This document shows positions 1-409 of a stretch of DNA of 8,593 nt, piece by piece. Where the stretch lies: the IMG/VR virus record IMGVR_UViG_2657245015_000017, positions 1-8,593 of that record; one strand, 5' to 3'. The position numbers and the translations under genes are program-made. The number at the start of each line of letters is the position of its first letter. Position 1 is the first letter of the stretch. The DNA comes from a virus. Its lineage: Duplodnaviria; Heunggongvirae; Uroviricota; Caudoviricetes. Under the pieces are notes generated by a model. That model searched no databases and was not told where the DNA came from. It worked only from the letters and a program-made list of their open reading frames with translations.

Positions 1-169
1 TGTTCTTGTTCGACTGAGCGAAATAATCCGCCACGGTGCCAAACATATTGGCGCGGTGAGAAACGGAGACGCCGCGAATGCCTTCCGGTGGGTAACGGGT
101 TGATGCCACCGCCTGCTCTGCTTCCTCTTTTGTTTCTACAAAAGGAATCAGGAAGTTATAGAAACCGAT
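1..169 (-). pseudogene. garL: Internal fragment of an HpcH/HpaI-family aldolase gene, best match 5-keto-4-deoxy-D-glucarate aldolase GarL; 5' part missing (homology stops at 169/170), 3' part runs off the window
   Basis: Minus-strand frame is open and translates to ...[56 protein letters not shown], which carries the RYPPxGxRG hallmark of HpcH/HpaI aldolases and matches my recollection of E. coli GarL almost residue for residue. Codons upstream of 170 in the same frame (..CQRVQRW) are unrelated. Not in the ORF track because it has no start and runs off the edge. Confidence 0.65.
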
Positions 170-409
170 CCACCGTTGCACCCTTTGGCACTTCCCGCGA
201 AAGGTGGAGAAGCAATTGTGAGTCGCGCAGCCACTGTGCCGCCCGTTTACAGGATTGAGGCACCGACGCAGATCATCATCCAGACGCAGCCAGGACAAAG
301 TGCGCAGGATATTGCGCGGGAGGTGGCCCGCCAGCTTGATGAACGTGAACGCAGGCTGAAGGCAAAAGCCAGGAGTAACTACAGCGATCAGGGGGGATAC
401 GACGCATGA
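170..409 (+). CDS. 3' end (about 78 codons) of a P2-family tail tape-measure gene (gpT-like), partial
   Basis: ORF-track entry 176..409 (TTG is only the first possible start; the frame is open from 104). Its stop overlaps the ATG of the next gene in an ATGATGA arrangement, and it sits directly upstream of U-D-ogr as in the P2 late operon. Assignment is by position and gene order, not by recalled sequence identity. Confidence 0.45.

Follow-up and report, generated by a model that had tools for sequence, protein, structure and literature searches.

The window analysed here is the entire 8,593-bp contig CDRU01000158.1 of the draft assembly GCA_000946335.1, and three segments tile it with zero mismatches to their parental loci: an internal piece of garL at the left tip (positions 1–169), a long central piece (169–8482) and a piece from the middle of lacZ at the right tip (8483–8593), with overlaps of 1 nt and 0 nt at the two joins. 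The foreign DNA consists of the two contig tips, 169 nt of garL and 111 nt of lacZ, neither of which is longer than a single short read, and each join is no more than about one read length away from a contig end. Between them, the central piece runs from the 3′ end of a P2-like tail tape-measure gene (T) through the genes U, D and ogr and across a natural prophage/chromosome boundary into a chromosomal block that stops inside potF.

On the minus strand, positions 1–169 hold an internal fragment of garL (2-dehydro-3-deoxyglucarate aldolase), corresponding to residues 90–145 of the 256 residues of the enzyme. Indeed, the minus-strand translation of positions 2–169 matches GarL residues 90–145 (PDB 1DXE) with 55 of 56 residues identical (E-value 6e-32), and the HpcH_HpaI domain (Pfam PF03328) is detected in this piece with 30 bits against a cut-off of 25 bits. 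The sequence-only reading had described the frame as GarL-like; the aldolase assignment stands, and the gene is garL itself, since megablast against 5,426 complete E. coli genomes returned 100% nucleotide identity in essentially every genome and the base-by-base comparison with the parental garL locus gave zero mismatches. The piece runs from the contig end to the first junction; it covers 56 of the 256 residues, lacks both ends of the gene and does not amount to a complete enzyme-coding garL. The gene call made at this tip is artefactual, i.e., a 60-aa GarL fragment that includes four foreign codons (VQRW). When intact, garL reads …CCGATATCCAG… across the position at which it is broken here.

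From position 169 to position 409, the plus strand carries the 3′ terminal 241 nt of the P2-like tape-measure gene T with 100% identity, that is, 80 codons and the stop. The sequence-only reading had correctly recognised the 3′ end of a P2-type T gene, and its count of about 78 codons is corrected by this result. The parental gene is annotated as a CDS of 3,078 nt (in the strains WAT and O111:H21 15A) and its uninterrupted sequence at the breakpoint is …GAGCTTCCACC…. The following genes on the same strand, U (406–891; Pfam Phage_P2_GpU, PF06995, 149 bits), D (888–1988; Phage_GPD, PF05954, 93.7 bits) and ogr (2079–2297; Ogr_Delta, PF04606, 78 bits), are intact, as had been proposed from the sequence, and all their Pfam matches (406–2297) exceed the cut-offs. 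The succession of gpU, gpD and Ogr on the 3′ side of the tape-measure gene is that of the P2 tail and late-control module, and the annotation of complete genomes agrees with it. The natural boundary between prophage and chromosome lies in the attR region (2298–2532): in genomes lacking the prophage, the match begins at query base 363, equivalent to window position 2362, and a boundary placed at about 2362 is to be read as the onset of prophage-free homology and not as a delimited att core.

An ogr gene adjoining ybjL was found in 1,115 of the 5,426 complete E. coli genomes (~20%), and the arrangement T′-U-D-ogr-attR-ybjL recurs, colinear and with 100% identity, in intact prophages of complete genomes. 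Its closest known counterpart is the P2-like (Peduoviridae) prophage integrated downstream of ybjL in E. coli. As a standard member of these prophages, the central segment holds nothing biologically new; judging from its sequence, the right end of the prophage is ordinary, intact and not degraded. It differs from the full prophages of the ybjL site in that only the last 2.2 kb is present, T being cut at what we regard as an artefactual join and not at a natural boundary. At the nucleotide level, the phage part (170–2361) shows 95–96% identity with P2-like Klebsiella phages. Note that about 34 P2-like Klebsiella pneumoniae phages (e.g., KP12 and 4LV2017) match T′-U-D-ogr at this 95–96% level, and that this stretch is nearer to them than to the majority of the Escherichia phages deposited in the collection.

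The chromosomal block (2533–8482) also shows zero mismatches and comprises ybjL (minus strand), ybjM, grxA (minus strand), ybjC, nfsA, rimK, ybjN and a truncated potF, of which the first 99 codons remain (8184–8482). By megablast, positions 169–8482 were recovered as one colinear piece with 100% identity to E. coli O111:H21 strain 15A (NZ_CP077477.1), and these central 8,314 bp are colinear in 973 complete genomes, where they run on into the rest of T at one end and into the rest of potF at the other. In addition, ybjL to potF together with the prophage end is carried by two records of ‘single cell’ E. coli of ~73.7 kb that are listed as plasmids (NZ_CP148584.1 and NZ_CP148399.1) and that may be wrongly labelled pieces of the chromosome.

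The first junction, between garL and the tape-measure gene, was placed at positions 168–170 by a three-way alignment, with no filler sequence. The comparison with the parental loci, base by base, showed that garL identity ends after base 169 and that phage identity begins at base 169, so that the break lies at 168/169 or 169/170, the single ambiguous T (T169) being common to both parents. The sequence-only reading, which had proposed an abrupt change from garL to phage DNA at 169/170, is confirmed to within this one base. At the break, garL reads ...GAAACCGAT/ATCCAG and the phage ...CAGAGCT/TCCACCG, the joined sequence in the window is GAAACCGATCCACCG, and identity between the two parents over ±30 nt is only 25%. 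Moreover, when 1–409 was compared by megablast with the 5,426 complete E. coli genomes, it split into two different places, each with 100% identity: garL for 1–169, and the 3′ end of the tape-measure gene with the start of the next tail gene for 169–409. No single place in these genomes covers at least 80% of positions 1–409, and no similarity to garL continues past position 169; a single spanning match or a continuing garL similarity would have spoken against a junction here.

At the other end of the contig, we found a second abrupt join, absent from the sequence-only reading, at which potF passes at codon 100 into 111 nt of mid-lacZ. This junction (8482/8483) is blunt, with 0 nt of overlap and no filler. 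The parental sequences are ...TTCCAGCC/GCTGGAC for potF and ...GATATT/ATTTGCC for lacZ, with no base in common, and the joined sequence in the window is TTCCAGCCATTTGCC; when uninterrupted, potF reads …CCAGCCGCTGG… and lacZ reads …GATATTATTTGC… at their respective breakpoints. The lacZ piece (8483–8593, plus strand, 37 codons in sense orientation, 100% identity) extends to the contig end and corresponds to nucleotides 1,498–1,608 of the 3,075-nt gene in strain 120899. Its frame differs from that of potF, and the fusion reads as an artefactual ORF of 134 aa (8184–8588), whose PotF/out-of-frame-LacZ product (UniParc UPI0007E8FA79) was found on this contig only among ~15 billion proteins. As for the first junction, the surrounding stretch (8440–8593) is nowhere covered to 80% or more by a single place in the 5,426 complete E. 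coli genomes.

The two joins share a number of features. Neither of them showed filler, adapter, linker, IS, att site or repeat in the base-by-base comparison, and around both joins the parents are 25–33% identical. The four breakpoints are all intragenic (garL codon 90, T 80 codons before its stop, potF codon 100 and lacZ at about codon 499), and no recombination signal was found at any of them. In every complete genome matched by megablast, garL, the central block and lacZ occupy three separate places; in strain 120899, garL and lacZ are 1.9 Mb apart. The orientation is mixed, garL and the central block being on the same relative strand and lacZ being inverted. Finally, neither junction was found among the 5,426 complete E. 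coli genomes or in the viral contigs of IMG/VR, and the first junction had no spanning match in the PLSDB plasmids and was absent from the GTDB species representatives and from the JGI metagenomes.

The sequence-only reading had offered two explanations for the garL junction, namely that a degraded prophage was deleted or rearranged up to this point, or that assembly or construction produced a chimera. The evidence favours the second and speaks against the first; it includes two facts that were not available to the sequence-only reading, namely that the window is a whole contig and that an equivalent blunt join, potF/lacZ, lies at its other tip. In favour of the first explanation, truly degraded prophages do occur at the ybjL site. 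In E. coli OHT76-1 (NZ_CP135244.1, positions 260–6210 of the locus examined), the same chromosomal site also holds a truncated T remnant followed by intact U, D and ogr; this remnant starts at the equivalent of window position 200 and is fused to a fragment of the tail-tube gene. However, the several deletions of OHT76-1 (capsid scaffold/tail X, baseplate V and tail tube) are all internal to the prophage and its chromosome is normal on both sides, whereas in our contig the partner is garL and a second foreign join occurs in potF. If decay had proceeded leftwards from inside T and fused the remnant to the flanking chromosome, T′ should adjoin the gene beyond the attachment site and not garL, which is megabases away; the homology of prophage-free genomes on the ybjL side begins at 2362, and the potF/lacZ join lies outside the prophage, where prophage decay cannot explain it. 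Indeed, garL is neither a neighbour of the attachment site nor prophage DNA and occupies a separate place from ybjL, no chromosomal context is present beyond the 169 nt of garL, and the other tip has an unrelated join of its own. We consequently regard a prophage deletion end-point as hardly credible for this contig.

The mosaic could in principle be a real and clonal rearrangement, in which illegitimate end-joining stitched together a break in garL, an 8.3-kb fragment from T′ to potF′ and a break in lacZ. The mosaic sequence is of high quality, matches its parents without a single mismatch and by itself forbids nothing of this kind. E. coli is without canonical NHEJ, and its alternative end-joining, which joins ends with little or no microhomology, operates at very low frequency; a real mosaic would have to be a multi-break, homology-independent product of end-joining with 0–1 nt of microhomology, in a shattering-and-rejoining style, and we judge this very unlikely. 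Such an event would require at least three to four simultaneous breaks at loci megabases apart, with mixed orientations, and the simultaneous inactivation of garL, lacZ and potF, and it is seen in 0 of the 5,426 genomes. The position of the joins also bears on this question. If they were clonal and real, the flanks in garL and lacZ would be unique, and the contig should then run on for kilobases; it ends instead 169 and 111 nt past the joins, and the chance of both tips ending so soon would be ~1e-5 (a rough estimate based on average contigs of ~30 kb).

A real molecule that is sub-clonal or non-chromosomal, i.e., a rare rearranged sub-population or an in vivo concatemer present in the DNA preparation beside the normal loci, would account for the early stop of the contig, as garL and lacZ would then each occur in two contexts. 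The central 8,314 bp, joined at either end to other DNA, do resemble a single physical fragment. Against this, the joins carry no replication origin, mobile-element or packaging signal, no known in vivo process would yield enough copies of such a molecule for assembly, and in vitro ligation covers the same facts more simply; such a molecule is in our opinion very improbable.

Our results therefore point to an origin of both joins outside the cell. We estimate at roughly 90% the probability that the garL/tape-measure junction is a sequencing or assembly artefact and not a structure of the chromosome, an estimate that relies on sequence comparison; the junction is really present in the deposited sequence, yet it is almost certainly not a biologically real feature. 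Two random-looking blunt joins, each about one short-read length from a contig end, suggest chimeric reads or inserts and not a prophage deletion. Chimeric reads and chimeric contig ends are a well-known class of error in draft assemblies, and the contig resembles the products of blunt ligation in these assemblies in its abrupt joins between unlinked loci of one genome at 100% identity, its overlaps of 0–1 nt without filler, its random intragenic breakpoints and the location of its two joins near the contig ends. Each side of a join is a different, unlinked E. coli locus with 0 mismatches; the joins are blunt or show microhomology at chance level, without recombination signal; they lie about one read length from the tips; and they are not reproduced in the independent genomes and collections searched. 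Random blunt joining, with a 1-in-4 chance of a match on each side, predicts by our own arithmetic an overlap of 0 nt with a probability of ~0.56 and of 1 nt with a probability of ~0.28, and the observed overlaps of 0 and 1 nt match this expectation.

The contig would accordingly be a normal 8.3-kb stretch of E. coli DNA, from the right end of a P2-like prophage through ybjL to potF, whose tips have been capped with unlinked genes, and the garL and lacZ caps would come from the same genome as the central stretch. As the likeliest course, we infer that randomly sheared and end-repaired fragments were joined by blunt-end ligation in vitro while the library was made and so yielded inserts or reads that are chimeric, or that an equivalent chimeric read arose in another way, and that the assembler interrupted the true path at such reads or else used them to extend the contig ends. 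It would then have halted once it could no longer tell the garL or lacZ sequence of the chimeras from that of the genuine loci. The overhangs set a constraint on the assembler in this scheme: they are unequal (169 and 111 nt), unlike the plain output of a single-k de Bruijn assembly of chimeric reads, in which a simple model would leave k-1 at both tips, and read-based extension, overlap-layout or multi-k assembly therefore has to be assumed.

Other technical sources were examined and set aside. The GATC at 167–170 arises from the join itself and is present in neither parent (GATATC in garL, GCTTCC in the phage), which excludes the ligation of restriction ends at GATC (Sau3AI, MboI or Hi-C type). 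The garL breakpoint coincides with the blunt-cut position of an EcoRV site (GAT/ATC) in the parental gene (window 167–172, positions 467–472 of the parental garL locus); EcoRV cutting fits this break, but the other three breakpoints match no recognised blunt cutter, and the coincidence is probably fortuitous. A lacZ-alpha fragment from a cloning vector was rejected, as the lacZ piece is from the middle of the gene (1,498–1,608 of 3,075). Remnants of adapters or linkers (Nextera ME, TruSeq, 454 A/B, loxP linker and Ion A/P1) were all absent, and a repeat boundary as the cause of the contig break was dismissed, since it would leave T and potF at the tips and not garL and lacZ. Joins made by template switching or by MDA usually show several nucleotides of microhomology, and these origins are less likely for joins with 0–1 nt.

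From a biological point of view, the contig holds no new element, no fusion gene and no prophage-decay event. Its value is that of a warning: contig CDRU01000158.1 of the public draft GCA_000946335.1 has chimeric tips, and these tips have already yielded artefactual proteins in the databases, such as the UniParc entry given above. Scans of draft contigs for abrupt junctions should begin with the distance between the junction and the contig end, and with a look for the same feature at the opposite end.

A further ORF of this region, a 63-aa fragment of T (218–409, with a GTG start at 218), is annotated as a gene of its own on six other contigs (L006 and L008–L012 in our locus set). The garL join was rejected as the source of this ORF elsewhere: on all six contigs, it results from frameshifts or internal stops of T in otherwise normal prophages. 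These splits of T are probably assembly errors in a long and repetitive gene, and five of the six contigs are human-metagenome scaffolds.
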